Below, piece after piece: positions 23,798 to 39,251 of a DNA stretch of 64,000 nucleotides. How positions within the stretch are numbered: the first letter of the stretch is position 1; each line of letters begins with the position of its first letter. Origin of the DNA: Candidatus Bathyarchaeota archaeon (GTDB taxonomy: Archaea; Thermoproteota; Bathyarchaeia; Bathyarchaeales; Bathycorpusculaceae). Location: the NCBI GenBank assembly GCA_963806535.1, contig CAWDYC010000007.1, forward strand, positions 288,001 to 352,000, given 5' to 3'. The notes beneath the pieces are model-generated. The model was not told the DNA's origin. It made no database searches and saw only the letters and a program-made list of their open reading frames with translations. The translations under genes and the position numbers were made by a program.

Positions 23798-23956
23798 TTA
23801 TATTCTTCGTCCAGAAATCAATCGCACAAGTATTATGATTATGGCTATGACAAGCAGAACCCATATTATGGTGCCAAGGTTGAATAAGACAAAGCCAAGG
23901 AGCCACAGTATGATAAGTATGGCAGCAACTACGAAAAGCACATCAAGCAATCCCAT
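23798..23956 (-). CDS. lmo0937/DUF5670-like small membrane protein (not in ORF track)
   Basis: MGLLDVLFVVAAILIILWLLGFVLFNLGTIIWVLLVIAIIIILVRLISGRRI; ILWLLG...LLVIAII..L.RLISGRR signature. Confidence 0.75.
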   Translation of the reverse strand: MGLLDVLFVVAAILIILWLLGFVLFNLGTIIWVLLVIAIIIILVRLISGRRI

Positions 23957-24004
23957 TTTCAAAGCCTCTACTCACCCTTAACTTGAAAGCTCTTCTTTAA
24001 CATG

Positions 24005-24028
24005 TGTGACTGTGAACAAACAGCTACA
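24005..24028 (-). promoter_or_regulatory. Palindromic box TGT-N3-TGT-N6-ACA-N3-ACA, copy 1
   Basis: TGT GAC TGT GAACAA ACA GCT ACA; next to TATA-like box of 23956 gene. Confidence 0.8.
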
Positions 24029-24182
24029 GCAATCAAGCAAATGGCGGTGCTGTTGGGGACAAGCCGAAGCAGAATTCGGGTTGGATATCCTGAAAAACGA
24101 TGATTCTAGATTTAATTATCTTTATATTCTTAAAATTTGTTCATATTCTAATTACCCAGTCACCAGACGAGGGGTTGTTCTC

Positions 24183-25097
24183 ATGAATCTTTCCACCCAC
24201 ATAATGTTTGGCATACTTGTTGGAGCCTTATTGTTTGGCAAACCAGAAATAGCGCTAATGGTTGGTGTGGGTGCGGCAATTAATGATCTAGACAGAGAAT
24301 ACGGCTTTTTTAGCAAGGAGTCCTTTCGACTCAGACAGATCCATCGTGCATTATTCCACAATTTCTTATTTATCGGCGTAGTGTATCTGATAAACCCGTT
24401 TTTTGGCATCGGAGCTTTTCTTCACTCATTCTTAGATTCTTTCACGACAACAAGGGACAGAGGTGTCGAATGGCTATACCCTTTTTCAAGAATTGTCACC
24501 AAAGCGGTGTATGATTCAGATGGCAAGAAATTGCCGCTTGATCCAAAACATAAGATCTATTTTCTTTCGAACGATTTTCCTGGCTTGACACGAAGAACTA
24601 CAAAAGACATCAAACCTGGAGAGATACCTGTGCCAAATAGAAGAACTTACGGCCCAGCTCTTATCAGGGAAATATCTTGACAGGTGTATCTTTTTTGGAT
24701 CCGTAGCTATTTTTCTTCTTTTGACTCTCTTTTCTGTTTCAGGCTTGCGGCAGTTCATTGATTTCAGTCTGCATAATGAAACTCTTTCTATTACAATTCC
24801 ATTGTTAATTGGCTTCAATAGGCATCTTCTTGAATTTTCTTGTGGGCGAACTTGACAGAAAGAAACTAGTTAAGACCAAGACCGATAGGCCATACAAGTT
24901 TTCATTTATCCTATCCATTGGAATAATAATCTTTGCGATAATTCTTGGTGGAATTCTTAATCCGAAAGCTGTATTCACCACGCTCAGCATGATGCCGTAC
25001 ATTGCTCCAGGTGTAGTTTTTGTTGCGTTAGGTCTATTGTTCTTTTATTCCAGGAGAATTTTCAGCAGACAGCAAAAAAGATCCACTTATTGTGTAA
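24183..25097 (+). CDS. YdjM-like membrane metal-dependent hydrolase (frameshifted)
   Basis: THIMFG, NDLD, HRALFHN, HSFLDSFT, GVEWLYPF. Confidence 0.75.
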
Positions 25098-25386
25098 TAA
25101 ATACGTATCTCCGAAGAACATTTAATGTTATGGATTGCGGAAAGCGCGAGATTAAAAAACCAAACAATAACGCACTGCGAAATTATCTTTTGCCAGGCTC
25201 TCTTGTCTGTAGGTTCACTAACAGATTAATTTGCACAATGATTTTGATCATCAGAAAGTCTCATTCACTATATCCTCTTTTAATTGGCATTCAAAGTTTC
25301 AAAAATTAGTCGAAATAGCCTAATATTAAACGTATGAAAAGAAATAACCGTGGGATTTGTTGAAAATGTTGGAAAGAAACATCCAA

Positions 25387-25677
25387 CTATGTCTTAACTG
25401 CTGGTGATAGGTACATGTGAAGCTTGTCTTTTGCAACTTTTAAGTGCAATCCATTGTCTGTCCAGACGCCAGTCCCTTTCTCTAAAGCTGAAACATTTAG
25501 CTTATTTCGCACTCCGCCTTTCTTTGCGCCAAGCACCGATTCAGCTACGTTCTTATCCAATTCGACTTCAAGATGAGTTACTTTCCATTCATCAGCATCT
25601 ACTTCTACCTCTTTGATTTTGCCGATTTTTTCATCTAACGCAAACACATCTTTATCTATAAACTCTTTACTTTTCAT
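25387..25677 (-). CDS. PRC-barrel domain protein
   Basis: IDKDVF..EKIGKIKEVEVD...WKVTHLEV. Confidence 0.8.
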   Translation of the reverse strand: MKSKEFIDKDVFALDEKIGKIKEVEVDADEWKVTHLEVELDKNVAESVLGAKKGGVRNKLNVSALEKGTGVWTDNGLHLKVAKDKLHMYLSPAVKT

Positions 25678-25748
25678 TCTTATCTAACCTCCCTTTACGC
25701 TCATAATTTTGTATACATTATATATGGTCATTGAGAGAGTTAAGCACA

Positions 25749-25772
25749 TGTGAATGTGAGCACACACCGACA
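25749..25772 (-). promoter_or_regulatory. Palindromic box, copy 2
   Basis: TGT GAA TGT GAGCAC ACA CCG ACA; TTAA 5 nt downstream in the sense of the PRC-barrel gene. Confidence 0.8.
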
Positions 25773-25855
25773 AACTGGCGGTTGCGTCTGCGCTAATCGG
25801 TCATATGCCATAAGAAATTTGGAACGCGAAACCGCACAAAAAATGAATTTTGAGG

Positions 25856-26642
25856 CTATTCTTCAGCTCTTTTCCAGTCCGATTCAAAACCTGTTCTGAG
25901 TACACCAATGAGGTTGCTGTTGTTTGTCCATAAAGAAGGGCTTTCGCCTAAGCCACTTTCCTTAGAGGTGGTAATCAATGCCTCTTTGTCATCAGACATT
26001 ATAAAGTGATTCAAAGGTTCAGGATGAAACTTGACATTGAACCGAAGTGCTACCCATCAGTTTTTTCACTTTTTCTTTAAGCAAATGGTCCGGGCTTTCT
26101 CCTTCAAAAATTATTCGAATCTGAGCGCTATTCTTTATCGCCAGTTTGTATTCGTCCGAAAATTGAAATAAAACGGGCATAATCCTTCCTTTGTCCGCAA
26201 TTAATGCAACTTCTTTTTTTGAGTTACTAATTAGATCTGCAGTTTTAGCAAAAATTGATTTCTTTTCCGCTATCAGTATGTAGATGCTTTCTTCTTTGGG
26301 AAGTTGTTGCTTCCAGTCTTTAAGCGTCAGTTTTTGAACTATACCTCTCATACCCACAAGCCGCTCATCAGATTTGCCTTTTTCTTCGGCTACTAAGAGG
26401 CTTAAAGCATCCGAAATGCGAGTGGCCCTAATTTCAGTTGGTTTGCCAAGCAATCTTTCAATCAGGCCCATTTTTTCAAGTGACGGCAGAATTCTGTAGA
26501 CATCTTCTCTGCGCACTTTCGAAAAGTTCGCTACCTGTCCCACGGTAGTTTTTTCCAGTTTAAGTATTGCTAAGTAAACCTTTGCCTGGTTAAGAGTCAA
26601 ACCCAAACCAAGCAGCAATTCAGTGTTTTCATCGTTAGACAT
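25856..26642 (-). CDS. TrmB-family transcriptional regulator (frameshift near 26040)
   Basis: LGLTLNQAKVYLAIL...VYRILPSLEKMGLIE..GKP wHTH; effector domain continues in another frame. Confidence 0.88.
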
Positions 26643-26762
26643 TGAAACCTTGAAGTATTCTTACACAATTTGTATATTTAAGATTTGATGGTCTTCTTTT
26701 GAAAATGTACGAAACTGTTTTTTGGAGTTATTTATGTTTAGGAAGTAACTTTGTTTTTGTTC

Positions 26763-27494
26763 TTAGTTCTGAAAAGTCGTCTCTAGTAATATTCTTTTCA
26801 GGATTGTGAAACCGTGACTTACTTTAAGTTTCTTTTCGCCTAACCTTGTCCTATAAGCAATTGGTACTTCCTTGATTGTGTAACCGCGCCGCTCAACCAA
26901 GTGGTTTAGCTCAACTTCGATGTCAAAGCCTTTAGATTTCACAAGCCACCCTTGCAAAATCTCAGCACGTATTGCCCGCAGCCCAGTCAACGGGTCCTGA
27001 AGCGGCACACCATTAAGCATGTTATGTACAAAAGCTAACATCTTGTTTCCAATGTGAAAAATGCTATGTAAAGCTTCCTTGTCAACTTGCCCGTTTAACC
27101 TGTTTCCACAAACCATTCCAACAAGCGGGTTTTCTTCGAGGACTTTTATCATTGCGGGGACGTATTCAGCAGGGTAAGTGTAGTCTGCATCAGTAAGAAT
27201 AATGTAATCCACATTTAGGTCGATGTGCTCAAGAGCTTTAGCTAAGGCGTCGCCCTTGCCAATGCCGTTTTGGCAAACAACTTTTGCTCCCAAGTTTTTG
27301 GCTATCTCAACTGTTCGGTCACTGCTTTTTCCGTCCACCACGAGAACCGGGATTTCACCAAGAGTGTCTTTCATCTCGGCTATTGTAAGCCCTATTCCTG
27401 GCGCTTCATTTAGTGCTGCAATTATTAGCTGCGCTGAGTAGCAGATTTCATTGTCTTGAACTAAAATAGTCAAATCCTTCATCGGTCCTTTCAT
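26763..27494 (-). CDS. Glycosyltransferase family 2
   Basis: AALNEA, VDGKSSDRT, DADYTYP, DPLTGLR. Confidence 0.9.
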   Translation of the reverse strand: MKGPMKDLTILVQDNEICYSAQLIIAALNEAPGIGLTIAEMKDTLGEIPVLVVDGKSSDRTVEIAKNLGAKVVCQNGIGKGDALAKALEHIDLNVDYIILTDADYTYPAEYVPAMIKVLEENPLVGMVCGNRLNGQVDKEALHSIFHIGNKMLAFVHNMLNGVPLQDPLTGLRAIRAEILQGWLVKSKGFDIEVELNHLVERRGYTIKEVPIAYRTRLGEKKLKVSHGFTILKRILLETTFQN

Positions 27495-27541
27495 GTGATT
27501 TTCAATATATCTTAAATACCACTATACACTACATAAGGCAC

Positions 27542-27558
27542 GTTTCCAAGAAGGAAAC
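27542..27558. promoter_or_regulatory. Inverted repeat GTTTCC-N5-GGAAAC upstream of the GT2 gene
   Basis: gtttccaagaaggaaac, upstream of the AT-rich promoter. Confidence 0.4.
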
Positions 27559-27688
27559 ATGTCAAAAACCGGAGTATCCGAAGACCTAAGGGGCAACGAC
27601 AAGAGAACGCAGGAATATTCATCATTTCCATTTGATTTTCTAAGAGAAAATTATCCTTCCAAAAAACTCTAAATTGACCGGTAATAAG

Positions 27689-28114
27689 TTATTTGGGAGG
27701 GTTGGGTGTGTTGGGAGTTGTAGCGTATCCAGTTGAAAAGGGCGATTGGAATTTGCCAATATTTTCTCTGATGATGCCATAGCCTTTTTCTGCAAGGTCA
27801 TTTGGCAAGTTATCCAAATCCAATTGCTCTCCTTCTTGCTGTTTACCTTGATTTTCCTCCCCATGCCTGAGCGTGAGTTTGATAGTTGAACGGACTATTC
27901 CTTTGTCCAACTTTACGTTCGATACATCTCTGTAACTGTAATCGGTGTAATCTTTCTTTAGACCAAGCGCGTGGGGATGCCGAAAAATTATCCGTTCATT
28001 AGTTATAATTACAGATTCAATGTTAATTCGAGGATGATAGATTTTTTCCTCAATGTACAGCTCAACTTTTTCGTTTGAGCCAAGTATGTTCTTTATGTCA
28101 TCTGGAGTTGCCAT
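27689..28114 (-). CDS. Bacterial PH-domain protein
   Basis: ESVIITNERIIF..PHALGLKKDYTDYSY.DV.NV. Confidence 0.8.
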   Translation of the reverse strand: MATPDDIKNILGSNEKVELYIEEKIYHPRINIESVIITNERIIFRHPHALGLKKDYTDYSYRDVSNVKLDKGIVRSTIKLTLRHGEENQGKQQEGEQLDLDNLPNDLAEKGYGIIRENIGKFQSPFSTGYATTPNTPNPPK

Positions 28115-28164
28115 TATTATCAACCAATTATACTTAATATATCGCTTGTTTGGATAAATAGCTG

Positions 28165-28188
28165 TGTGACTGTGGAGCCACATATACA
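28165..28188 (-). promoter_or_regulatory. Palindromic box, copy 3
   Basis: TGT GAC TGT GGAGCC ACA TAT ACA. Confidence 0.8.
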
Positions 28189-28276
28189 AAGAGAGGTAAT
28201 TCTTGCTTTGGAGCCTACTGAGACCCCAGAAACAACCGCAAAGTCGGAAATTGTTAGATAGAGGGGATATTTAATT

Positions 28277-28603
28277 TTATGCGAATACGAAGCCGATGAT
28301 TATACCTATTATGAATCCGATGCTTAGCGGTAGTATGCCAATGATGAGTGCTCCGTATTGATACACGATTGACCCGTATTGGGTGGCGTAATTTTTCAAC
28401 GTACTAAGGCTTAAGCCGAAAAAGCCAAAGTAGGCAACGACGAAGAGTACAATTGCCGCTATGATGGCAATCTTTAGGAACATATGGACCAAATATCCTA
28501 CTATCAATCCGACTACGAACATTATTACGATCAAAACAATAGGTGGCAAACCGCCTATGCTTCCAGAAGTAATAAAATGAAATACTTGATCTATCGCTCC
28601 CAT
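28277..28603 (-). CDS. Membrane protein, FUN14-like pattern
   Basis: GLIVGY...LKIAII ... LPLSIGFIIGIIIGF. Confidence 0.55.
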   Translation of the reverse strand: MGAIDQVFHFITSGSIGGLPPIVLIVIMFVVGLIVGYLVHMFLKIAIIAAIVLFVVAYFGFFGLSLSTLKNYATQYGSIVYQYGALIIGILPLSIGFIIGIIIGFVFA

Positions 28604-28654
28604 AATCTACAACTCCGCAATTAAGTAATTATTGTATTATTCCTTTTAAGCTTG

Positions 28655-28678
28655 TGTGTCAGGGAGGCTACATCAACA
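28655..28678 (-). promoter_or_regulatory. Palindromic box, copy 4 (one triplet degenerate)
   Basis: TGT GTC AGG GAGGCT ACA TCA ACA; flanks nearly identical to copy 5. Confidence 0.7.
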
Positions 28679-28858
28679 AATCGTCTGCTGGTATAATCAA
28701 ACACACTGTGGAAAAAACAGACCTTTGAGATTGCGAGAGAAAAATAGAATCTAAGCAACACAAATGATGCCAATAGTATAGAAATAAGATGACTCTTCTG
28801 TTTTAGCTTTCTCCGTTTGTGTGCATAGTGCTGGGTCAACCCAATGTATGATGTGATT

Positions 28859-29281
28859 TTAAATGTGGGGGAAGAATGTTCCAGGAACAACTATGCCAAA
28901 GAGGGCTCCGAATATTATGCTCACAACTACGAAGATTATCCATGCTAATATTGCTATCGCGATGGCTCCCAGCCAGCCAGTTTTGAAACTTGCTTTGTAA
29001 ACCCATATCCAAGTTATAAGCGCTAAAATTAATGCAATTATGTATGCTGTCGAGCCAATTAGCGATCCAAGTACGTAACCCACTATAATTAATGTAATGG
29101 CATAAACTATTGGACCGAACAGCGTAGCAATCATGGCTTCGCCAAACGTGGCTTTTCCGCCAGTAACTGCCTTGCCAGCCAACCACACAGGTATAGAAAC
29201 AATTATCCAAAGAATTATCAAGCCAATTATGGTTACAAGCAGACTTGCTAAAGTCATGTCTCCAAAAATAATATTGGTCAA
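28859..29281 (-). CDS. 4-TM membrane protein
   Basis: Hydrophobic ORF. Confidence 0.75.
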   Translation of the reverse strand: MTNIIFGDMTLASLLVTIIGLIILWIIVSIPVWLAGKAVTGGKATFGEAMIATLFGPIVYAITLIIVGYVLGSLIGSTAYIIALILALITWIWVYKASFKTGWLGAIAIAILAWIIFVVVSIIFGALFGIVVPGTFFPHI

Positions 29282-29330
29282 TAGTTACACCTGTTAAGTT
29301 ACTTAAGCGTGTAAATAACTATTAAACTTG

Positions 29331-29354
29331 TGTAGCTGTTGCCTCACATCAACA
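29331..29354 (-). promoter_or_regulatory. Palindromic box, copy 5
   Basis: TGT AGC TGT TGCCTC ACA TCA ACA. Confidence 0.8.
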
Positions 29355-29422
29355 AAGCGATACTTTGTTTGTTAATTTAGTTTAAGACTTTTCTAAAGTA
29401 AAAACCTCGGGTAACCCTCAGA

Positions 29423-29446
29423 TGTTGCTGTGACTTCACAATCACG
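29423..29446 (+). promoter_or_regulatory. Palindromic box, copy 6 (1 mismatch)
   Basis: TGT TGC TGT GACTTC ACA ATC ACG; TTAA 5 nt downstream. Confidence 0.75.
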
Positions 29447-29491
29447 CACACTTAATTTTGCCATAAACAACTTTTAGATAGGGGTGATAGA

Positions 29492-29629
29492 ATGTCTAAG
29501 ACGAAGAAAAAAGTTAAGAATGCTGCCGAAGAAACGGGAGAAGCAGTCGGCAAAGGTATTAAGAGAGGAGCTAAAGCCGTGGATGACTTTGGAAAGGGAA
29601 TAAAGAAAGAACTCAAGAAAAAAGAATAA
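29492..29629 (+). CDS. 45-aa LEA/CsbD-like hydrophilic protein (not in ORF track)
   Basis: GGGGTGA RBS, then MSKTKKKVKNAAEETGEAVGKGIKRGAKAVDDFGKGIKKELKKKE. Confidence 0.7.
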   Translation: MSKTKKKVKNAAEETGEAVGKGIKRGAKAVDDFGKGIKKELKKKE

Positions 29630-29793
29630 TGACGACAAATTTCCTTTCTCGAAACAAAAAAGAAAAGTACTTCTTACATTATCTAAAGTGAAGTCATAGA
29701 GTTCAAATTGATCTTGGAGGATAGGGCCGAGTTTCTAAATATTCTGGGGAAGAAAAAAACATTCAACATTACGCAGAGAACTTTTGGTTAGGG

Positions 29794-30750
29794 TTGAGAG
29801 TTTATCGTGGCTTCATCTCAAATTTACTTGACGTCAAGGCACCTATTTTTTGCGGACATAAAGTGACCTATAACTGTAATCTTCGCTGCAAGATGTGCCC
29901 GTTTTGGAAAAGAACCAGCCCAGATTCAAGTCTTGAACAGGAAAAAAGAATTCTGAAAAGGGTTTATGATTCAGGAGCTGTCGGAATCGCTTTTGAAGGC
30001 GGAGAACCGCTTCTGAGAAAGGATTTGGTCGAAATTCTTGCTTTTTCCCGTTCTCTGCCTTTGCATACGAGCCTCATAACTAACGGTACTCTGCTTGAGT
30101 CCAGAATTGACGAGATAGCACCGTACATTAACGGTGTGGTTTATGTTTCGTTGGATGGCTTAGAGAAAACTCATGATGCTATCAGAGGTGTTGGCGGAAG
30201 CTTTAGAAAAGCAGTAAGAGGAATAACTGCCGCAAAAGAAAAAGTTTCTGTAACCATCAATACGACGATAATGGCTGAGAATATTGATGAAACAGAAAGT
30301 TTAGTTAAGCTGGCAAAAGAGTTAGGAACAAAAATATCGGTAGCTGTGGCTCACGAATACTGCAACGTCAATGCATCTTCAGCTGCCACGGGCAAAACAT
30401 CGAAAATAGCCCACAGACTTATTGAAATGAAACAAGAAGGTTACCCTCTCGTCAATTCAATCGGTTACTTCAAAGTGATGGCTAAAGAGAAAAACTGGCA
30501 GTGCAAACCATGGGCGATGGTAAACATTGACCCTAACGGGAACGCAGTTTTGCCTTGCTATGTCCACAATGATTATGCAAGCAGCGTTTCCATCTTTGAA
30601 ACTGGCATTAAAACAGCCGTTTCTGGATTTGACTGGAAAAAAACTAGAAACTGCCAGAAATGTAGTCTTCACTGTTATGTTGAGCCTTCTTTGGCACTTT
30701 CAGGAGATCTTAAATCCTATATGCATTGGGCATTTCGTGTCAACATATAG
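29794..30750 (+). CDS. Radical SAM protein with SPASM/twitch domain (PTO1314-like)
   Basis: GHKVTYNCNLRCKMCPFW, GGEPLLR, C-terminal CQKCSLHCYVEP. Confidence 0.85.
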   Translation: MRVYRGFISNLLDVKAPIFCGHKVTYNCNLRCKMCPFWKRTSPDSSLEQEKRILKRVYDSGAVGIAFEGGEPLLRKDLVEILAFSRSLPLHTSLITNGTLLESRIDEIAPYINGVVYVSLDGLEKTHDAIRGVGGSFRKAVRGITAAKEKVSVTINTTIMAENIDETESLVKLAKELGTKISVAVAHEYCNVNASSAATGKTSKIAHRLIEMKQEGYPLVNSIGYFKVMAKEKNWQCKPWAMVNIDPNGNAVLPCYVHNDYASSVSIFETGIKTAVSGFDWKKTRNCQKCSLHCYVEPSLALSGDLKSYMHWAFRVNI

Positions 30751-30845
30751 TTCATCTATGAAAAATCAAGAAGCATACATCGTTTAAAGAAAATTAAGTT
30801 TAAAATAATGAAGAGAAGGAAAAAATTTAGCAGTTAAATGCTTGA

Positions 30846-31241
30846 TTATTTGGCTCTAACGATCTTTACTCTGCCCAGAATTTTCCAGTATTCGATTTCT
30901 GTGCCAGGAGTAAGTTTGGCTTTAGGAACTTCTTCCTCGTCAGGATATGGAGCATCAAGATACTCGTAAGTTTCCAAGTCCATGATTTGTATTCCGGTTG
31001 GATTGACAGCGAAAACTTGACCTGCTCTCTTGTCAATTATGGGTACTTCAGCGCCAAGATCAACTGGTTTAACGAATTGTCTCTTTTGTTTGTCAAAGAC
31101 ACCTATTGCAACGATTCTTGCTTTTGCTGATCCGTGTTTTCCAGGTTTTGACTTGGCAATGTCGACTATGCGGCATGGTTCGCCTTCAATCATCATGTAG
31201 CCGCCAACGCGTAATTCTCCGACATCGACTGGTTTACTCAT
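30846..31241 (-). CDS. eif5a: Translation factor aIF5A
   Basis: SKPGKHGSAKAR hypusine motif. Confidence 0.98.
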   Translation of the reverse strand: MSKPVDVGELRVGGYMMIEGEPCRIVDIAKSKPGKHGSAKARIVAIGVFDKQKRQFVKPVDLGAEVPIIDKRAGQVFAVNPTGIQIMDLETYEYLDAPYPDEEEVPKAKLTPGTEIEYWKILGRVKIVRAK

Positions 31242-31443
31242 ACACTCACCAACAGTACTATTTCTAATCCAAACATTCTGAATAACAGCCATATATAGAT
31301 ATTTATTAATTTTTCAATGACGAAAGTAAATTTTTTAGAATTTCCATATCATTTTTGCTTCTAAAAGGATTATGCGTTCATGACTTTTCGAAATGTGGGT
31401 TGAGGTTACGAGTTAGCCATAGAAACTGAGAAATTAATGACAA

Positions 31444-32006
31444 TCAAGTTTTTAACCAGATAGGTTTTCCACCGACTATTTCCCTAAGTTGTGGTTCAGG
31501 ACATTGCAGACCCAAAGCTGTGAATACGCTTTCTTCTGTCTCGCCAGCCACTGCAACTTCATCTTTCAATAGTCCTTCGCTGTACTTTAGCCTAAAACCT
31601 TTTGATATGAGCATAGCCTGCAAGCCACATGTTGTGGTCTGCCGAACCCGTACGAATAAGCTCTTGAATGCCAAATGTTTGCTCAGTTGCACGATAAAAG
31701 TCAACTTGAAAAAGGATGTTTTCACAAGGATAATTTATTTTTATCACGCTTTTGCCTGCACAAATTACTTTGGCTTTTTTTAGGGCTTGAACAATTTTGC
31801 CCCAGCAACTATCAGTCGCAACCACAACAAAATCTACATCGCCGACAGTCGGCTTCTGCCTTCTGATTGAGCCAACTACCTCAAGTTTATCGCATAATGG
31901 TTTGATGATTAGTTTCAACTTGTTTAGCAAGAATCTGTGCCTTTGCTAACTCAAGCCTCGGTGAAACATCTGGCTCTTCCTCGCCGAACAGTTTAACCTG
32001 CTTCAT
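31444..32006 (-). CDS. Minimal DNA polymerase X (palm+thumb only; two frameshifts)
   Basis: VVGSIRRQKPTVGDVDFVV, QVDFY, RTGSADHN, EESVFTALGL..PEPQLRE. Confidence 0.75.
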
Positions 32007-32453
32007 AACTTACTTTCTTCCCACGTTCTCAACCGCAAATTGATGTTTTTCCTTTATCTCCATTCGGAGCTGACAGTTTTCTTTTCCAATACAGTAATCG
32101 CAACTTACATATTCTTTTGGGGTTTGGCAATCTATTACTATTTGAGCATACAAGTTTTCTCAACCTCGGGAAGCAACACAACGACAAGAACTTGCTTATA
32201 GGCAATATCAACTAAGTTACAGCACTAGTTCCAGCAGGATAATTCGTCTTTACCATCAAGTTTAAACAAAAAAATGCATCAAAATTCTGTTTCTATTGTT
32301 TCAGCCCTCGAACTCCGATTTATATCTACCAGCAAGTCTTGCCAAAATTCTGACTGACTTTTCAGCAAAAACATATTTAGACCTTACCCAGAAATCAACT
32401 GAACAGTAAACTAACGTTAATCGAATTGGTGAAGATTTGGGAGTGTAATTGGT

Positions 32454-33897
32454 TTGGTTAAAATTCAGTTTGTAGAGCCGCCAAAAGATTACTGGTTTGT
32501 TATGGGCGAATATCTTCCTCCGCCATACGGAATTCTTCAGCTCGCAGCATATCTTGAAAACAAAATGGAGGACGTGGAAATTGAAGTCATAGACTGCCAA
32601 GCAATGTCTCTAGACTGGCCTGGACTGGAGAAGAGAATTGAAGCATTTAATCCTGACATTGTCGCAGCAAGCGGATTAGCAACCTGCAACGTTTACATTA
32701 CAGCCCGCACCTTGGAATTGGCGAAGAAGCTAAAGCCGAACGTCGTGACTGTAACGGGCGGTCAGCACTTCACAGCACTGGCTCAAGAAAGCCTTGAAGC
32801 TTACCCAGAAATTGATGTTGTTGTACGAGGTGAAGGCGAAGAAACGTTCCTAGAGTTGGTTAAAGCGGTAAGCGAGAAATCAGACTTTTCAGCAATCAAA
32901 GGCATTTCGTTTCGTCATGAAAAGAAGATTTTTCATAATCCTCCAAGACCTTTGATTGAAAACTTGGATCAATTGCCTTTTCCAGGATATCATTTCGTAA
33001 AGGATTACGCTCACCGATACCATTTCACCATGATGGCGGGTTCCAAAGCGAAATACGGAATGATTGAAGGGTCAAGAGGCTGCCCTAACCGCTGCACTTT
33101 CTGTTCTCAATGGAAACATTGGCAGGGCGCATGGCGACACAAATCTGTAAAACGAATAGCAGATGAAATGGAATATCTATACAACAACTATGGCAGCAAG
33201 CTCCTGTGGCTAACAGATGACAACTTTGGCTTGGGCAAACGAACCGAAGACCTCTGTGACGAACTCATTAAACGTCCTTTCTCCAAAGATATAACAGGTT
33301 TCATGCAGGTTCGATGTGACGATGCAGCAAAAAACCCAAGAATCGTAGAAAAAATGAGCAAAGCCGGAATCAACTGGTTCCTTCTAGGTGTAGAAAGCCA
33401 AAGCAAAGTCACTCTTGACCGCTTCAACAAAGGCACCAAACCTGAAGACGCTGCAACAGCCGTTAAACTGCTCAAACAGAACGGCATATTCTCACAAGCA
33501 ACATGCATCGTCGGAAACCGAGCTGACACGGCTGAATCAATAAGTGGACTAAGACAATTTGTCAACGACATCGACCCCGACATTGCCATCTTCATGGTTC
33601 TAACCCCGTTTCCAGGAACAGACCTCTACCAAGAAGCAAAGAGTAAAGGCTGGATTGAAGACTATAACTGGGCTAACTACGACATGGTACACGCAACAAT
33701 GCCTACCGAAACCTTGACAAGAGAACAAGTACAGCAAGAGCTGACCAAGTGTTACCAGTCGTTCTATGGCTCATGGGGTAGACTACTGCAGGGTGTTTTC
33801 TCAAGAAACAAAGTGAAAAAGCAGAGTGTACCGCTACATGGCTCGTCAAGGAGTAGTAAGACAACTGGAAAGCATTAAGCCGCTGATTCCATGTTAA
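32454..33897 (+). CDS. Cobalamin-dependent radical SAM protein (BchE-like class B)
   Basis: B12-binding N domain (PPYGILQLAAYL, GGQHFT), SRGCPNRCTFC, YDMVHATMPT; frameshift near 33820. Confidence 0.9.
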
Positions 33898-34694
33898 AAA
33901 CCAAGAACCCACCAATCGAACCAACCCTAATGTTTCTTATCTTTATCTCCCTCTTTGGATTAGCCCTTTCTTTCGTATTGGTTGTCAACCTCAGGTAGGA
34001 ACGCCGTCTGATGGCTTCGGACTGAGAAAACCGTTGGTGGGCTTAGTATTTGGCGCGCTCTGCGTATTAGGAATCTTCGCCTCGATTTACCCCAGTTCAT
34101 GTTCCAAGAGTTTTTGATTATGAAAAAAACATGCAGCACGAGAATGAAGCTGGAAAACAACGAGATGTAAGCATTCGTGGACATCACCCAACGTGCAGAA
34201 ATTATTCTGCCCACATTCTGAAAGTCAAAAACAGAATATTCTGCGCTACATGTACAGGTTTCTCCGTCGGTGCAATTATCGCATTAATAGGTGTCGGGCT
34301 ATTCTTTTTTGGGCCATTCAGCTTCGGAACAAAACCATTGATTGCAATGATTATCGGCGCTTTTGCTGTGTCAATAGGCTTGTTGCATTCAATCCTGCCT
34401 GGCTTCAGAGTCGGTTTCTCACGCTTCATTGCTAGTGCTTTTTTCGCTGTAGGATCGTTTCTGATCCTTGCTAGTGTAGAAGATGCTTTGCGTAATACTT
34501 CAATTGACTTTTTCTTCGTTTTGCTGAGTGTACTTTGGCTTATGACAGATACCGCTCTGTCACGATGGGATCATCGAAGGATATGCGCCAAATGTCTGTC
34601 AGAATCTTGCGGTCGCAAGAGCTTAATTAGGTTGGGCTTGGTCTTGAGCGACTCATTCGGTAGATCGCTCCTGCAATCAATAAGATTCCAATGA
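33891..34694 (+). CDS. Membrane protein with His/Cys cluster (DUF2085-like; frameshifted N-terminus)
   Basis: GHHPTC..SAH....RIFCATCTG followed by TM helices. Confidence 0.55.
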
Positions 34695-34963
34695 CTATTA
34701 CGATAATAATCCATAGATCAGGCGTTGCAGAAACTAGACCCTGATGCTTGTGCCAATGCAAAAGCGCCCCATATCAAGATTATTGCTCCTATAACTAATC
34801 CGACGATTGCACCGCCGTGCGGAAGCCCGAAACATTCATTTTCAGCTCTTCTACGTTCGTAACGTCGTGATTCATAGGTTCCTGTACGTAGACTTGCGCC
34901 ACATTTGACACAAAATTCTGCTGTATCATCATTCAGAGTGCCGCATTTTGGACAATAAACCAT
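34627..34963 (-). CDS. Zinc-ribbon domain membrane protein (frameshifted)
   Basis: YCPKCG...FCVKCGASL, ECFGLP, TM helices. Confidence 0.8.
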
Positions 34964-35133
34964 ACAATTACCGGCTAAGAAGTTGTTTGTCCGTTACTGT
35001 TAATAAGTTTTTAGCATAATTCACTTCGCTGATTAAACAAATTTCTTACAAACGTTAAATTTTATGCTTTTTTTCAATTAAAACCGTGCGCTTAGTTACG
35101 GATAAATACAACTTTCACAATATTTAATTATAA

Positions 35134-36093
35134 ATGGAAGTTTTTAAACGAAATAAAACAATAGCTTTGATTTTGATATTAATAGTTATCATTTCGACAA
35201 TTTCAGTAGTGTTTTTAGTTCAGAACATTTCTAAACCTCCTTCGAGCCCAAACTCTTCTCCGTCGCCAACGCCTATTACTACTGCTTCTCCAACCAAAAA
35301 TTCTCCAACACCTACTATTAAGGCCACTTTGCCTCCGACTTTTACTCCCCCTTCCACTTCACTGCCCACACCTACAAGTTCATTCTTCCCGGGCGAAGTT
35401 ACTCAATATCAGGGCCAAGGCCTAACCTCAATTAGTATTTACATCGATTATCTTTATCAGCATCCTGACGTTGCAATTCATGGAGCACAAAATATTAACG
35501 AAGCATCATACCACTTAGCAATTACTGGCCTCGTGAATAATCCAATAAATTATAGCTACGATGAGATTGTTGACAACTTTTCTTCAACCCTGGATGTGGC
35601 TACTCTACCTTGTGTGGAAGGATGGAGCGTAACCTTGTTATGGCAAGGGGTTCAGATAAGCGACCTTATCCAGCCACTTGGTGTTAGCCCAAATGCAACA
35701 ACGCTCATTTTCTTAGCTGCCGACGGCTACTCAACTTCACTTCCATTAGATTATATAAAACAGAATAACATTACGATAGCTTACAAAATGAATAACGTTA
35801 CCCTTACACCTCTAACGGGATTTCCATTCTTTCTTGTGGCCAAAAACCAGTATGGGTACAAATGGATTGAGTGGTTAACGGAAATCAACGTGTCGAACGA
35901 TTCAAACTATCTTGGATACTGGGAAAGCCAAGGCTACCCCAACAACGCAACTGTTAGCAATACTAGTAACAATTCACAACTGCTAACAAGTGTTCCAATC
36001 AGCACCTTAGTCATATCCATTTCGATTCCGTGTATAGCCATTGCAGGAGCGATATTTGTCCACCGACACAAAATAAAGAAAAAACAGAAATGA
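35134..36093 (+). CDS. Sulfite-oxidase/MsrP-like molybdopterin oxidoreductase, membrane-anchored
   Basis: LPCVEGWS..W.GV, ADGYSTSLPL, GFP, YGYKW..W, GYWE..GY; P/S/T linker. Confidence 0.85.
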   Translation: MEVFKRNKTIALILILIVIISTISVVFLVQNISKPPSSPNSSPSPTPITTASPTKNSPTPTIKATLPPTFTPPSTSLPTPTSSFFPGEVTQYQGQGLTSISIYIDYLYQHPDVAIHGAQNINEASYHLAITGLVNNPINYSYDEIVDNFSSTLDVATLPCVEGWSVTLLWQGVQISDLIQPLGVSPNATTLIFLAADGYSTSLPLDYIKQNNITIAYKMNNVTLTPLTGFPFFLVAKNQYGYKWIEWLTEINVSNDSNYLGYWESQGYPNNATVSNTSNNSQLLTSVPISTLVISISIPCIAIAGAIFVHRHKIKKKQK

Positions 36094-36261
36094 ACAATGT
36101 TACTGGAATCCTTCCTCGGCGCAATTTTAATAATTAGGAGTTTTTTGTAATTTTTTCACTTTAGCTTGCAAGCATACCCAAAATCTTCGCTCAATCCATA
36201 GGCTTCTAAAAAGTAGTAAAGAATTTGGAAAAAGTAGAGTGCTCAAATTGAATTCGAGATT

Positions 36262-36410
36262 TCAGCTAGTAAACCTGCGGATAATGCCTGTTTGAATTAA
36301 AAATTGGACTCGTTTATGAACGGCGGTGAGGGACAAGTTTAGTCTCTCAGCAAACTCGGCGTACGAGAGCCTGGAATTCACCAACAGCAACTGAACGAGG
36401 GTTAAAGAAT
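36262..36410 (-). pseudogene. Lrp/AsnC wHTH remnant
   Basis: Hand translation LVQLLLVNSRLSYAEFAERLNLSLTAVHKRVQFLIQTGIIRRFTS*; no in-frame start. Confidence 0.7.
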
Positions 36411-36560
36411 TTTAATAATTAATAGTTCAACTTGACCAACGTCCCCGTTGAGGTTTCAGGTTTTCGTTTTGATACTAAAAGTAAACGGGAGTTTTGACCA
36501 AGGCAGCTGTGTGGTTGATAGAGATCTATTTGGAGAATATCGGTTATTGAAAGCTTAGGT

Positions 36561-36600
36561 GATCGCCGCGTTCGCAACGCGGAGCCGCGGGTTCAAATCC
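36561..36600 (+). tRNA. tRNA-Ala(CGC) fragment, not a complete gene
   Basis: GATC-G-CCGCG TTCGCAA CGCGG-AGCC-GCGGGTTCAAATCC: anticodon stem-loop plus T-loop; no acceptor stem found. Confidence 0.7.
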
Positions 36601-36740
36601 ATATAGACTCAACCCTATTGATTGATTCCGGTTGGCTTCGACAAGTTTCCCAAGTCCACTAAACGGTAGTCAAAAATGTATTCACCACTTTTTCATAAGA
36701 TTGGAAAAGCTAAACGAAAAGCTTGAGCACTGAAAGTGAG

Positions 36741-37760
36741 TCATTTGACTATATTTTGTGGTTTCTCCTTAGCGAAGGCCTTAATATTTTCAATAGTGCC
36801 ATTAACAAGCCTCTCCAACGATTCCTTACTGTTAAACGCGCAGTGGGGCGTTATGATAACGTTATTTAGCCTCAAAAGAATATGTTCCCTCAGCATCGTT
36901 GCCAACTGTTCCCTTGGGAGATTGTCCAAAAGCAGCTGTGCCTCCTCTCGAATAAGCGCTTCCTCCTCTAAAACATCCAAGCCTGCACCTCGAAGGTGAC
37001 CATTTAATAATGCTTCGGTAAGTGCTTGCGAATCGATTAGGCTGCCTCTTGCAGTGTTAATTACAACGGTTCCTTTTTTCATTAGTTTGATTGTGTCCTT
37101 ATTTAAGAAGTGGCGAGTTTCATCATTGAGCGGCAAATGGAGAGTAACTATGTCTGATTTCGATAGTAAATCTGTCCAATCCACATATTGGAATCCCAAA
37201 GCATCCGCTAAAATGTTGTCTGGAAATTTGTCATAAGCCAACACATTCATTTTAAAGCCCTTGGCTATTTCAATTACTTTAGTACCAATTCTACCAGTGC
37301 CAAGAACGCCAAGGACTTTGCCGTTTAAATCAAAGCCTCCTACACCTTCACAAGTAAAGTCACCCTGACGGGTCCTTTCGTATGAATCATGAATATTGCG
37401 TGATAGCGAAAGAATCAGAGCAAAAGTGTGCTCGGCAACAGTAACCTCACCATAATAAGGAACATTACAAACTAAAATGCACCTTCGTTTGCAAACCTCA
37501 AGGTCAATATGGTCAAAACCCGTTGAACGAGTAGCGATTAAATGCGTTTTTTTAAGTTTAGAGATGATATTGCTGTTCAGGTTAGAGTAGATAAAAACTG
37601 AGATTACCTCAAAATCAACTATCTGGTCAACATTTGCTTCACTTAATTGATCTTTGAACAAACGAATCTCATTATCGGCCAAGCCCTTACATAAAAATGG
37701 TTTCTCCCAATCTTGAACCTCAAAGAAAGCAATCCTCAAAAAAGCACACCGTAATAACAT
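36741..37760 (-). CDS. D-2-hydroxyacid (D-lactate-type) dehydrogenase
   Basis: RSTGFDHID, GTGRIG, INTARG, TPHCAF. Confidence 0.93.
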   Translation of the reverse strand: MLLRCAFLRIAFFEVQDWEKPFLCKGLADNEIRLFKDQLSEANVDQIVDFEVISVFIYSNLNSNIISKLKKTHLIATRSTGFDHIDLEVCKRRCILVCNVPYYGEVTVAEHTFALILSLSRNIHDSYERTRQGDFTCEGVGGFDLNGKVLGVLGTGRIGTKVIEIAKGFKMNVLAYDKFPDNILADALGFQYVDWTDLLSKSDIVTLHLPLNDETRHFLNKDTIKLMKKGTVVINTARGSLIDSQALTEALLNGHLRGAGLDVLEEEALIREEAQLLLDNLPREQLATMLREHILLRLNNVIITPHCAFNSKESLERLVNGTIENIKAFAKEKPQNIVK

Positions 37761-37978
37761 TTAGTGTGGTGTTTCAGTTAAACAATTTGGTAATTCGTTT
37801 CAATGCTTTCCTCTTTCATGACAGGTTACAACTGACGCTAAATCAACTTTAAGGTGAGGTTAAGCTACTTAAATTGACACTTATGGAAACTCTTTAGTTA
37901 ACTAAAAATATTAGTTTTTACTATAGCTTATTTGAGCTTGTTATTGTTTAATCGTTGAATTTTGGTTTGGCATTTAGT

Positions 37979-38299
37979 ATGTCTTCGGAATTAAGAACAA
38001 TTTTGAATAAAGTAGCTGAAGAAAACTATAAACGAGAAGAAAATGCGGTTGAGCAAGCATTTCAGCGTTACAAACCTCTCCTCTTGAAAATTGCCGGTTT
38101 TAAGGGAATCGATGTTTTAGTTTCCTTTGAAGGAACCAAACAAGCCGATTCGAAAGAAGAGCAAGCAGATTTATGCATGCTCGAAAAAGCCAGCTTAATC
38201 AGAGGCCATACCAAAAACAGTAATCACAACACCTACCGACAATACGAACTCACAGAGAAGGGAGCTGAATTAGCAGAGAAGATCGCAAAAGAGGATTGA
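37979..38299 (+). CDS. Hypothetical protein with wHTH-like C-terminus
   Basis: LEKASLI....YELTEKG. Confidence 0.55.
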   Translation: MSSELRTILNKVAEENYKREENAVEQAFQRYKPLLLKIAGFKGIDVLVSFEGTKQADSKEEQADLCMLEKASLIRGHTKNSNHNTYRQYELTEKGAELAEKIAKED

Positions 38300-38308
38300 A
38301 GTTGGCTT

Positions 38309-38527
38309 ATGGATAACGATTTCAAAGTAGGCGATCATGTTGAGTGGAATTCAGAAGTAGGCAGAGTTCAGGGGACTATAAGGAAAAAAATTACCTCCGA
38401 AATCGAATTCAAAGGTTACATGGTTCATGCCTCGAAGGAAGAACCGCAATATTTGATTAAGAGCGACAAAACCGAACATTTAGCCATGCACAAAGGCTCA
38501 GCCCTCAAAAAGATAAGCAAAAAATAA
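38309..38527 (+). CDS. DUF2945 (Hva1 Tudor-like) protein
   Basis: FKVGDHVEWNSE.G...ASKEEPQY.IKSDKT.H.AMHKGSAL. Confidence 0.9.
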   Translation: MDNDFKVGDHVEWNSEVGRVQGTIRKKITSEIEFKGYMVHASKEEPQYLIKSDKTEHLAMHKGSALKKISKK

Positions 38528-38799
38528 AGGCAAGCTAGAGCCTACAAAGGTTATTCTCAAGCTATTTAGTGTCTACTTTAACAAATTTGTAATACAATTT
38601 TTCTCCAGTTGATTTCTTGATAGCTCTGGATTCGACAGCCCCTTCTTTCTCCAAGTTCTCGAGAGTAAGGCGAAACTTCGACTCTGGAGCCATACCATAA
38701 CTCCAAGCTGTGCCGTGTTGTCCACGCTTGCCAACCACACACATTTATCAGGTTATTCCCTCTTCATAACTTTTTAATGCTTGCGGAGGTGACATTTCA

Positions 38800-39009
38800 A
38801 TGTCTGAATGGCCCGGAGGAATAAGTGGCGGCGACTACGACAAAAGAGATGTACCTATCCCAGAGCCAAAAATTGAGCCAGATGGAACATACCGCTGTTC
38901 AGTTTGCAACCAAGGTTTCTCAACAAGACAAGGCTACGACGACCACTACATAAATGACCACACAAAGGAGAAAACAGAGAAAAACTATGCCGAACCTTAT
39001 ACAAAATAG
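38800..39009 (+). CDS. Small C2H2 zinc-finger protein
   Basis: YRCSVCNQGFSTRQGYDDHYINDH; GGAGGTG RBS. Confidence 0.75.
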   Translation: MSEWPGGISGGDYDKRDVPIPEPKIEPDGTYRCSVCNQGFSTRQGYDDHYINDHTKEKTEKNYAEPYTK

Positions 39010-39049
39010 AAACAGGAAACATCCGAGGATATCGGAACAAAGCAGCGCT

Positions 39050-39073
39050 TGTAGATGTGGTTCTACAGTCACA
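39050..39073 (+). promoter_or_regulatory. Palindromic box, copy 7
   Basis: TGT AGA TGT GGTTCT ACA GTC ACA; TTAA 5 nt downstream. Confidence 0.8.
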
Positions 39074-39131
39074 AATCGTTAAGTAGAATTGAAAAGATAA
39101 TAAGTCAGTTATACAAGAGGTGATTGGACAA

Positions 39132-39251
39132 ATGAGGTTTTTGCATAATAACAAAGGTGGTTTAGCTGGGTGGCTCTGGTCAGCTATTGTAGTAGTAGTA
39201 TTAATAATAGTTCTTATCGTTGTTGTGAGATTTCTTCTTCACTTGATATAA
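39132..39251 (+). CDS. 39-aa single-TM peptide (not in ORF track)
   Basis: GAGGTGA RBS, then MRFLHNNKGGLAGWLWSAIVVVVLIIVLIVVVRFLLHLI. Confidence 0.65.
   Translation: MRFLHNNKGGLAGWLWSAIVVVVLIIVLIVVVRFLLHLI

Follow-up and report, generated by a model that had tools for sequence, protein, structure and literature searches.

The window analysed here, a stretch of 64,000 nucleotides (C7:288001-352000 of a 2.95-Mb assembly in 12 contigs; genome labelled G000, with relatives numbered in the same way), comes from an uncultured peat and soil archaeon of the Bathyarchaeia, a widespread and mostly uncultured group in which gene regulation is hardly known. It carries repeated copies of a 24-bp palindrome, TGTNNNTGTNNNNNNACANNNACA (TGT-N3-TGT-N6-ACA-N3-ACA), next to TATA-like boxes. 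The original prediction held that seven such copies mark an undescribed regulon of stress-type genes, switched by one dimeric factor or by an alternative TFB in the position of the TFB recognition element (BRE).

RESULTS

All seven predicted copies were found at the positions first given. Five match the pattern perfectly (24005, 25749, 28165, 29331, and 39050), where 0.01 matches are expected, in keeping with the earlier estimate of far less than one by chance in 64 kb; five were reached in 0 of 100 shuffles. The copy at 29423 deviates by one mismatch and that at 28655 by two, both in a single triplet (AGG replacing TGT) that had been described as degenerate. With up to two mismatches allowed, the window holds 8 matches against 3.3 expected. 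A two-mismatch match at 31078, inside a long open reading frame (ORF; 30846-31292), was discarded as chance.

Copy 1 (24005-24028, perfect, scoring 37.9 bits with the matrix described below) faces a minus-strand gene. Its TATA-like box, TTAAAG, lies 4 nt away (23995-24000, minus strand; this and the other boxes were read from the flanks), and 42 nt from the palindrome begins the gene for a 54-amino-acid (aa) membrane peptide of the DUF5670 family (lmo0937-like; 23798-23962, minus strand; PF18919, E = 2.1e-7), homologues of which have the motif upstream in G013, G116, and G020. On the other side of copy 1 stands a YdjM-family inner-membrane gene (PF04307; 24174-24680, plus strand), and no TATA-like box at the proper spacing was found on that side.

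Copies 2 and 3 also face the minus strand. Copy 2 (25749-25772, perfect, 29.4 bits), conserved also in G003, G013, and G019, is followed after 5 nt by the box TTAACTCT (25736-25743, minus strand) and by the gene for a 96-aa PRC-barrel protein (25387-25677, minus strand; PF05239), whose homologues in G003, G013, G116, G150, and G020 have the motif upstream. This gene is duplicated: a second copy at C5:46803 also encodes 96 aa, with few residues differing, and both copies have perfect sites. The C5 copy (region C5:46274-47093) is divergent from the gene of an HTH_45 protein considered below, and in G150 an HTH_45 gene and a PRC gene stand in tandem. Within the window cluster lies a gene for a TrmB-like regulator (26019-26642, minus strand; Pfam TrmB, E = 5.3e-15). 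Copy 3 (28165-28188, perfect) scores low, at 18.2 bits, because its TATA box, 4 nt away, is of the TATTTAT type (28154-28160, minus strand). It precedes the gene for a 140-aa bacterial-PH-domain protein (27689-28111, minus strand; Pfam bPH_3, E = 2.1e-10), which has homologues with the motif upstream in G003 and G013; the site overlaps the 5' extension of the longest ORF of this gene, the start that agrees with the Pfam match being the ATG at 28111.

Two membrane-protein genes, both on the minus strand and both matching zero Pfam families, follow copies 4 and 5. Copy 4 (28655-28678, minus-facing, 23.9 bits including TATA) has its two mismatches in the distal inner triplet, and G003, G013, and G019 have no mismatch at the orthologous site; the box TTAAAAG (28643-28649, minus strand) lies 5 nt away, and the gene (28277-28603) encodes 108 aa, with motif-preceded homologues in G003, G013, G019, G020, and G022. 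Copy 5 (29331-29354, perfect, minus-facing, 31.4 bits) has the box TTTAATAG at 4 nt (29319-29326, minus strand) and a gene for 140 aa (28859-29281), with such homologues in G013 and G019.

The last two copies face the plus strand. Copy 6 (29423-29446, one mismatch, 30.7 bits) is followed after 5 nt by TTAATTTT (29452-29459, plus strand) and by the gene for a 45-aa Lys/Gly-rich hydrophilic peptide (29492-29629, plus strand; zero Pfam families), homologues of which have the motif upstream in G003, G019, and G020. Copy 7 (39050-39073, perfect, 34.5 bits), to which a near-identical site exists in G013, has TTAAGTAG at 5 nt (39079-39086, plus strand) and precedes a transmembrane peptide of 39-43 aa (39120-39251, plus strand, starting at GTG 39120 or ATG 39132; no Pfam family). 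A weak site with the outer triplets only (38716-38739, plus strand, 15.5 bits) is an uncertain member; it precedes a 69-aa C2H2 zinc-finger ORF (38800-39009), whose zf-C2H2-type Pfam hits all fall below the curated cutoffs. Just past the motif cluster, two plus-strand ORFs (29794-30750 and 32454-33878) show by eye the CxxxCxxC typical of radical-SAM enzymes, and no palindrome site was found upstream of them.

Distances from palindrome to start codon measured 41-73 nt in the window, close to the 45-75 nt first proposed. Pfam bears out the target labels DUF5670, PRC barrel, and bPH, but the labels "FUN14-like" and "LEA/CsbD-like" given to the membrane proteins and the 45-aa peptide of the window found no support, with zero Pfam hits.

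Across the 2.95-Mb genome, the pattern occurs 16 times without mismatch, compared with 0.48 copies expected from independent halves, and 13 control patterns (seven other spacings, everted, two direct arrangements, and two permuted triplets) gave 0-3 matches each. Five of the 16 perfect copies lie in a 15-kb stretch of the window, and 12 of 48 gaps between neighboring sites are shorter than 5 kb (~4.6 expected). Genes were called with our own crude ORF-based caller, by which ~77% of the genome is coding and start codons are provisional. Counting as noncoding whatever lies outside called ORFs or within the first 60 nt of one, all 16 perfect, 28 of 30 one-mismatch, and 66 of 137 two-mismatch copies are noncoding.

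The palindrome is tied to the TATA box at a fixed distance, as originally proposed. Its end lies 4-5 nt from the box, with the proximal end facing TATA. When sites are oriented by the adjoining A/T-rich box, TTAA stands exactly 5 nt past the palindrome in 6 of 16 perfect, 14 of 30 one-mismatch, and 12 of 137 two-mismatch sites, other offsets reaching counts of at most 4; the remaining perfect sites have TATTTAT- or TTTA-type boxes in the same position. The consensus is TGTkRyTGT-N6-ACArYmACA, with a purine at position 5 in 31 of 32 symmetrized half-sites. A 36-nt matrix (the palindrome plus 12 nt), trained on 31 sites, gave 105 hits above 12 bits versus 7 with the reversed matrix, and 71 versus 1 at 18 bits or more; the latter hits correspond to 59 unique sites, 28 of them not in the training set. 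In all 59, the TATA box is downstream of the palindrome and the spacing is constant to ±1 nt. In 40 sites, the offset from palindrome to TATA is 4 in 32, 3 in 5, and 5 in 3. Furthermore, with RYCACA-N5-TTAA as a seed, which leaves the distal half unconstrained, TGT occurs exactly 18 nt upstream in 18 of 37 genomic occurrences, versus only 1-3 of 16-34 for seed spacings of 2, 3, 4, 6, 7, and 8. The distal TGT is coupled only at the correct TATA spacing, and therefore the two halves and the TATA box make up one composite.

Among the 40 sites scoring at least 24 bits, the outer triplets are conserved in 37 and 35 sites and the inner triplets in 27 and 27. By simple arithmetic, the outer triplets are 21 bp apart from center to center, or two helical turns. 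The A at position +2 past the palindrome is one-sided, being found on the TATA side in 32 of 40 sites and at the mirrored position in 17 of 40. Eight sites have properly spaced TATA-like boxes at both ends, facing divergent ORFs. At the variable positions, 82 cells are complementary where 92.5 ± 7.4 are expected, so that no compensatory changes between the arms are seen, and an Rfam search of the element returned no family at gathering score. This lack of covariation and of an Rfam match argues for a protein-binding site and not a hairpin; as judged from its pattern of conservation, the element looks like the binding site of a two-fold symmetric protein, which fits the single dimeric factor originally invoked.

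To place the element within the promoter, a core-promoter model was built from 39 tRNA promoters of G000, the tRNA scores being leave-one-out. Their consensus is gggaAAcgTTTAAATa, in which the TATA box starts a median distance of 41 nt upstream of the mature 5' end, and it may be used as a reference for promoter prediction in this lineage. The regulon promoters (n = 40) have a TATA part as good as that of the tRNA promoters (4.8 ± 2.2 versus 4.3 ± 2.5 bits; random, -2.9) and a weaker BRE part (-0.7 ± 2.3 versus 2.5 ± 2.7 bits; random, -3.2), the operator itself overlapping the BRE stretch that is scored. The proximal ACA, at -5 to -7 from TATA, falls on the A-rich BRE stretch of the tRNA promoters, so the BRE position is indeed occupied, as had been suggested.

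In total, about 59 promoters of G000 are marked by the composite, and up to ~100 at a looser threshold, mostly in front of genes for small proteins of stress type. The start codon follows the palindrome at a median of 64 nt. Targets have a median length of 96 aa, compared with 195 aa for all called genes, and 32 of 40 are proteins of at most 150 aa, against 1,135 of 3,098 genome-wide. By Pfam, those outside the window include KGG/LEA_5 repeat proteins, a second PRC barrel, GYD, MsrA, stand-alone AsnC-type ligand-binding domains, DUF5752 with flavodoxin, DUF3303, DUF6855, fasciclin with C2H2 fingers, a receiver domain, TMEM175, RibD_C, SnoaL, and F420_oxidored. In relatives, motif-driven genes add Fe/Mn superoxide dismutase, AhpC/TSA, ferritin/rubrerythrin, CMD (AhpD-like), Hsp20, and canonical CsbD, as well as a P-type ATPase, TatA, and a TFIIS-type zinc ribbon. 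As far as these family assignments go, the theme of the target set is general and oxidative stress; the stress-type set that had been proposed from the window thus holds for the window, the rest of the genome, and the relatives.

Some target loci deserve separate mention. At C3:298008-300165, six small KGG-repeat (GsiB/LEA-like) genes form a row in the same orientation, and the palindrome precedes three of these genes (sites 298291, 299404, and 300237). At C10:31461-35256, an 864-aa ORF lies downstream of the motif-driven flavodoxin-DUF5752 gene, in the same orientation, and has an N terminus that we take to resemble the chaperone ClpB. The urease gamma gene is a target at a two-mismatch divergent site (C7:385871), where the palindrome has TATA-like boxes on both sides and separates urease gamma from a 382-aa membrane protein that resembles, by eye, a urea transporter; this locus is a possible metabolic member of the regulon.

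The arrangement is not confined to G000. Counting perfect matches only, in metagenome-assembled genomes (MAGs) that are 56-100% complete and, being kin, not independent, 21 of 24 genomes of the same genus carry 2-18 copies (reversed-pattern control, 0-1). At least one copy is found in 36 of 121 genomes of the family (G000 included), with a maximum of 27, and 1-2 copies in 3 of 16 genomes from other families of the order. About ten genera reach high counts (6-27), most of the genomes concerned being 2 Mb or larger. The two perfect sites of G086 (C163:4-27 and C254:115-138), identical in sequence, opposite in orientation, and located at contig ends, are probably a single locus counted twice. The order of palindrome, TATA box, and gene recurs in 36 loci from relatives, and 37 of 68 motif-driven ORFs there have a homologue among the 59 motif-driven ORFs of G000, versus 0-12 (mean, ~4) when 20 equally large gene sets were drawn at random; several of these loci had been picked for clustered sites, and same-genus promoters are closely related. 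At the sequence level, at least 10 genera of one Bathyarchaeia family share the element and a large part of its target set, as expected of a regulon-type promoter element.

Three proteins were considered as candidate readers. One belongs to the HTH_45 family, of which G000 has 13 paralogues. Two closely related ones, C5:46274-46507 (29.0 bits) and C4:517761-517991 (22.5 bits), have an oriented site 34-42 nt before the start. The candidate (PF14947, E = 3.3e-11) has 78 aa, with a C-terminal helix of 17 residues, and its nearest solved structure is Sso10a (PDB 1r7j; sequence E = 7.6e-4). Its AF2 model (predicted local distance difference test score, 90.6) superposes on 1r7j by Foldseek with a TM score of 0.85 and a root-mean-square deviation (rmsd) of 1.4 Å, and it shows a winged helix and then a C-terminal helix, as in the family. 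When the best HTH_45 hit per genome was taken from the 121 family genomes, and 30 loci examined, an oriented site lay upstream of the gene in 13 of the 14 loci scoring at least 32.8 bits and in none of the 16 weaker ones. Further MAG loci have an upstream site in 22 of 24 cases, many with a conserved variant of the distal half, TGTTAyAGT. All 29 orthologues keep Cys17, at the end of helix 1, and none of the 11 other paralogues of G000 has it; a cysteine at the end of helix 1 is common to the candidate and Sso10a. Of the 21 genomes of the genus with two or more sites, 15 have the subfamily.

The second candidate is a small protein of 92 aa without a Pfam family, encoded at C9:18601-18879 and hereafter called the C9 protein, whose gene has the top-scoring site of the genome (41.7 bits). 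The C9 gene (also locus L198:1483-1758) has an oriented upstream site in 12 of 12 same-genus and 10 of 12 other-genus loci. It tracks the motif best across genomes: 19 of the 21 motif-bearing genomes of the genus have it, none of the 4 genomes lacking a perfect site does, and 12 of 13 family genomes with at least five sites do. Its predicted core runs strand-strand-helix-strand, with a basic tail. A Foldseek search gave a best E value of 0.9, the Atlas no usable hit, and VIA-align a best Z of 4.6 with an rmsd of 4.3 Å over 50 residues; no fold was thus assigned, which does not make it a new fold.

The third is the TrmB-like family. The short TrmB-like gene of the window is syntenic with motif clusters in G003, G019, G013, G116, and one further MAG, and its own canonical promoter lacks the palindrome. 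Matches of at least 108 bits occur in 9 of the 13 family genomes that have five or more sites, and within the genus 7 of 21 motif-bearing genomes contain it. The G013 gene lies in pieces at four contig ends, two N-terminal and two C-terminal (C5:89771-90067, C31:3-299, C38:1-351, and C58:1-351), which suggests a duplicated region that broke the assembly. Among seven loci of longer TrmB-like relatives examined, five genes of ~480 aa from five genera show a reversed geometry, in which an A-rich BRE and TATA are followed after 3-4 nt by a perfect palindrome and, 21-30 nt on, by the start codon (L024 in G063, L124 in G058, L128 in G080, L126 in G060, and L127 in G098). Judging by position, this arrangement would put the operator over the start site, a repression geometry. 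The shorter relatives have a two-mismatch palindrome in one case (L130, G042) and none in the other. In G060 and G098, this palindrome also drives a small C9-type gene that runs the other way.

Among the genes lying across the 59 sites of G000 from the targets, no regulator stood out by eye, Pfam having been run on some of these neighbors only.

DISCUSSION

Our preferred explanation is that a single DNA-binding factor of two-fold symmetry uses the palindrome as its operator, embedded in the core promoter. By analogy with TFB-RF1, we lean, by a modest margin, toward this factor being an activator that aids TFB binding, because TATA is normal and the BRE weak, the palindrome is always upstream, and its spacing is fixed to ±1 nt. 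A dimer seated at this fixed upstream distance would help TFB and TBP to assemble at a substandard BRE, and under stress the whole promoter set would fire together. Where the composite is reversed (TATA, palindrome, gene), as at the long TrmB-like genes of relatives, the same factor would repress.

Several observations weigh against this scheme. The proximal triplet lies inside the BRE window, so a bound factor could exclude TFB rather than recruit it, and the weak BRE may merely be the price of operator overlap. Moreover, no single candidate reader covers the whole set of motif-bearing genomes. No member of the HTH_45 subfamily was detected in G016 (18 sites, 94% complete), G020 (14 sites, 95%), or G022 (6 sites, 95%), where the best HTH_45 hits reach at most 54 bits and lack the cysteine, with a site at 0 of 7 loci; nor was one detected in G058, G119, G099, G107, or G141, where the same was true of 20 loci. 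The C9 protein is missing from G116, which has 27 sites, and from G017. The TrmB-like protein was rejected as a universal factor at the genus level, given its presence in only 7 of the 21 motif-bearing genomes.

The most serious competitor, which we judge distinctly less probable than activation yet far from negligible, is that the palindrome-bound factor covers the BRE and blocks TFB and TBP, and that its inactivation by stress derepresses the set, including its own gene. Several archaeal stress regulators, such as Phr and MsvR, are repressors, which counts for such a mode. The proximal ACA occupies the tRNA-type A-rich BRE position, and the one-sided A at +2 resembles a residual BRE base shared with the operator; such sharing would also account for the rigid spacing. 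At the long TrmB-like genes of five genera, the composite abuts TATA from downstream, and the simple rule that the operator touches TATA covers both geometries. In general terms, regulators bound within the promoter are stated in PMC5937170 to hinder TFB or TBP. Steric blocking, however, needs neither a ±1-nt spacing over ~60 promoters nor a site that is always upstream of TATA and never over TATA or the start site, and a repressed promoter would be expected to have a good BRE, yet the BRE here is ~3 bits weaker than in tRNA promoters.

An extended BRE read by a TFB paralogue alone, defining a sigma-factor-like promoter class, is a much poorer explanation and in our estimate very improbable, although G000 has four TFB genes, the distance to TATA is constant, and, with the TATA flank counted, no part is better conserved than the proximal half. 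TFB, a monomer, touches just a few base pairs on the upstream side of TATA. By the seed analysis above, the distal half, 18-24 bp upstream of the proximal half, is coupled to the latter; this coupling does not fit the earlier suggestion of an alternative TFB as sole reader. The distal half is also conserved like the proximal one in its outer triplets and not confined near TATA, and the element is a true palindrome that serves divergent promoters from both ends at eight sites. Almost no weight is left for a repeat lacking regulatory meaning, be it a small mobile element, an RNA or DNA hairpin, or chance. The clustering of five copies in 15 kb and the excess of gaps below 5 kb would suit such a repeat, but conservation is limited to the triplets and the TATA flank while spacers and flanks vary among copies, neither a compensatory pattern nor an Rfam match was seen, the counts exclude chance, and the sites precede homologous genes in other genera.

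If the palindrome is indeed the operator of a symmetric factor, what reads it? The reader may well be a factor not yet seen, the option to which we give the greatest weight because no candidate covers every motif-bearing genome, even if that weight stops short of a clear preference. Of the named proteins, the putative Sso10a-like HTH_45 protein, with a site in its own promoter, comes next as a tentative choice; its standing as a universal factor is weakened by the motif-bearing genomes without it. The C9 protein is an unlikely reader and may be simply the most conserved regulon member, and the TrmB-like proteins, also putative, seem no more likely. In the HTH_45 case, two winged-helix heads, two helical turns apart, would read the outer TGT/ACA triplets, and the dimer would replace a proper BRE, sigma-factor-like, at ~60-100 promoters. 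The invariant cysteine at the end of helix 1 would sense redox, switching the programme on when anaerobes meet oxygen. As a whole, this picture of an Sso10a-type protein as the sequence-specific master activator of an archaeal general stress response with a cysteine redox switch is speculative, and we hold it to be improbable.

Our literature search found no paper on any regulon or binding motif in Bathyarchaeia, and the description of it as undescribed stands as far as such searches reach. What emerges is a testable regulatory code, consisting of a 24-bp operator, an exact promoter position, ~60 targets, and three named candidate proteins. Families of the bacterial sigma-B and RpoS stress responses (among them CsbD, KGG/GsiB/LEA-like, DUF5670, and bPH) appear here to be wired together under a TBP/TFB promoter, and these shared families bear on how a "general stress response" is organized in archaea. 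Should the Sso10a-like protein be the reader, this would be the first specific site for the Sso10a family. The element could also be used as a marker of stress-gene expression in peat and soil metatranscriptomes.

Among known systems, the Firmicute sigma-B general stress regulon likewise places dozens of small genes under one common promoter signature. Its members resemble the present set in CsbD, KGG/GsiB-type repeats, DUF5670, bPH, small membrane or hydrophilic proteins, and oxidative-stress enzymes. Unlike sigma-B, the archaeal set uses TBP and TFB without a sigma factor, and a symmetric operator plus TATA in place of -35 and -10 boxes.

Closest in layout is TFB-RF1 (PF1088) of the Thermococcales, described in PMC5937170 as recognizing a 13-nt motif, TCTGAANTTCAGA, and activating by aiding TFB binding. 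In both systems, a genuine TATA box with a weak BRE is preceded, at a constant short distance, by a palindrome, and in both the regulator's own operon (here, the gene of the HTH_45 candidate) has a site. They differ in that the operator here has 24 bp with four TGT/ACA triplets instead of 13 bp, has another sequence, belongs to another phylum, serves ~60 promoters instead of two operons, and reaches into the BRE, where that of TFB-RF1 stops before it.

TrmBL1 (Tgr) binds the Thermococcales glycolytic motif (TGM), TATCAC-N5-GTGATA, and its operator is said in PMC4706686 to activate from upstream of BRE/TATA and to repress from downstream of TATA. Here, too, the palindrome occurs in two geometries and TrmB-family genes lie in motif clusters. 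In contrast to the TGM, which reads TCAC..GTGA, the present element reads GTGA..TCAC and is longer, with inner triplets; its targets are stress proteins and not sugar metabolism, and most motif-bearing genomes of the genus lack the TrmB-like orthologue.

Finally, Sso10a and Sac10a (PDB 1r7j and 4hw0; Sulfolobales) share their fold with the HTH_45 candidate, and in the published model (PMC4941522) an Sso10a dimer covers 25 bp with a 60-degree bend, a footprint close to the 24-bp palindrome. Sso10a is described there as an architectural chromatin protein, whereas the candidate is shorter and is linked to a specific palindrome by its genomic context only. By analogy with these systems, the element is best regarded as a candidate promoter-embedded operator that would define an archaeal general-stress regulon, working in the manner of TFB-RF1 and TrmBL1, with another motif and a much larger scope.

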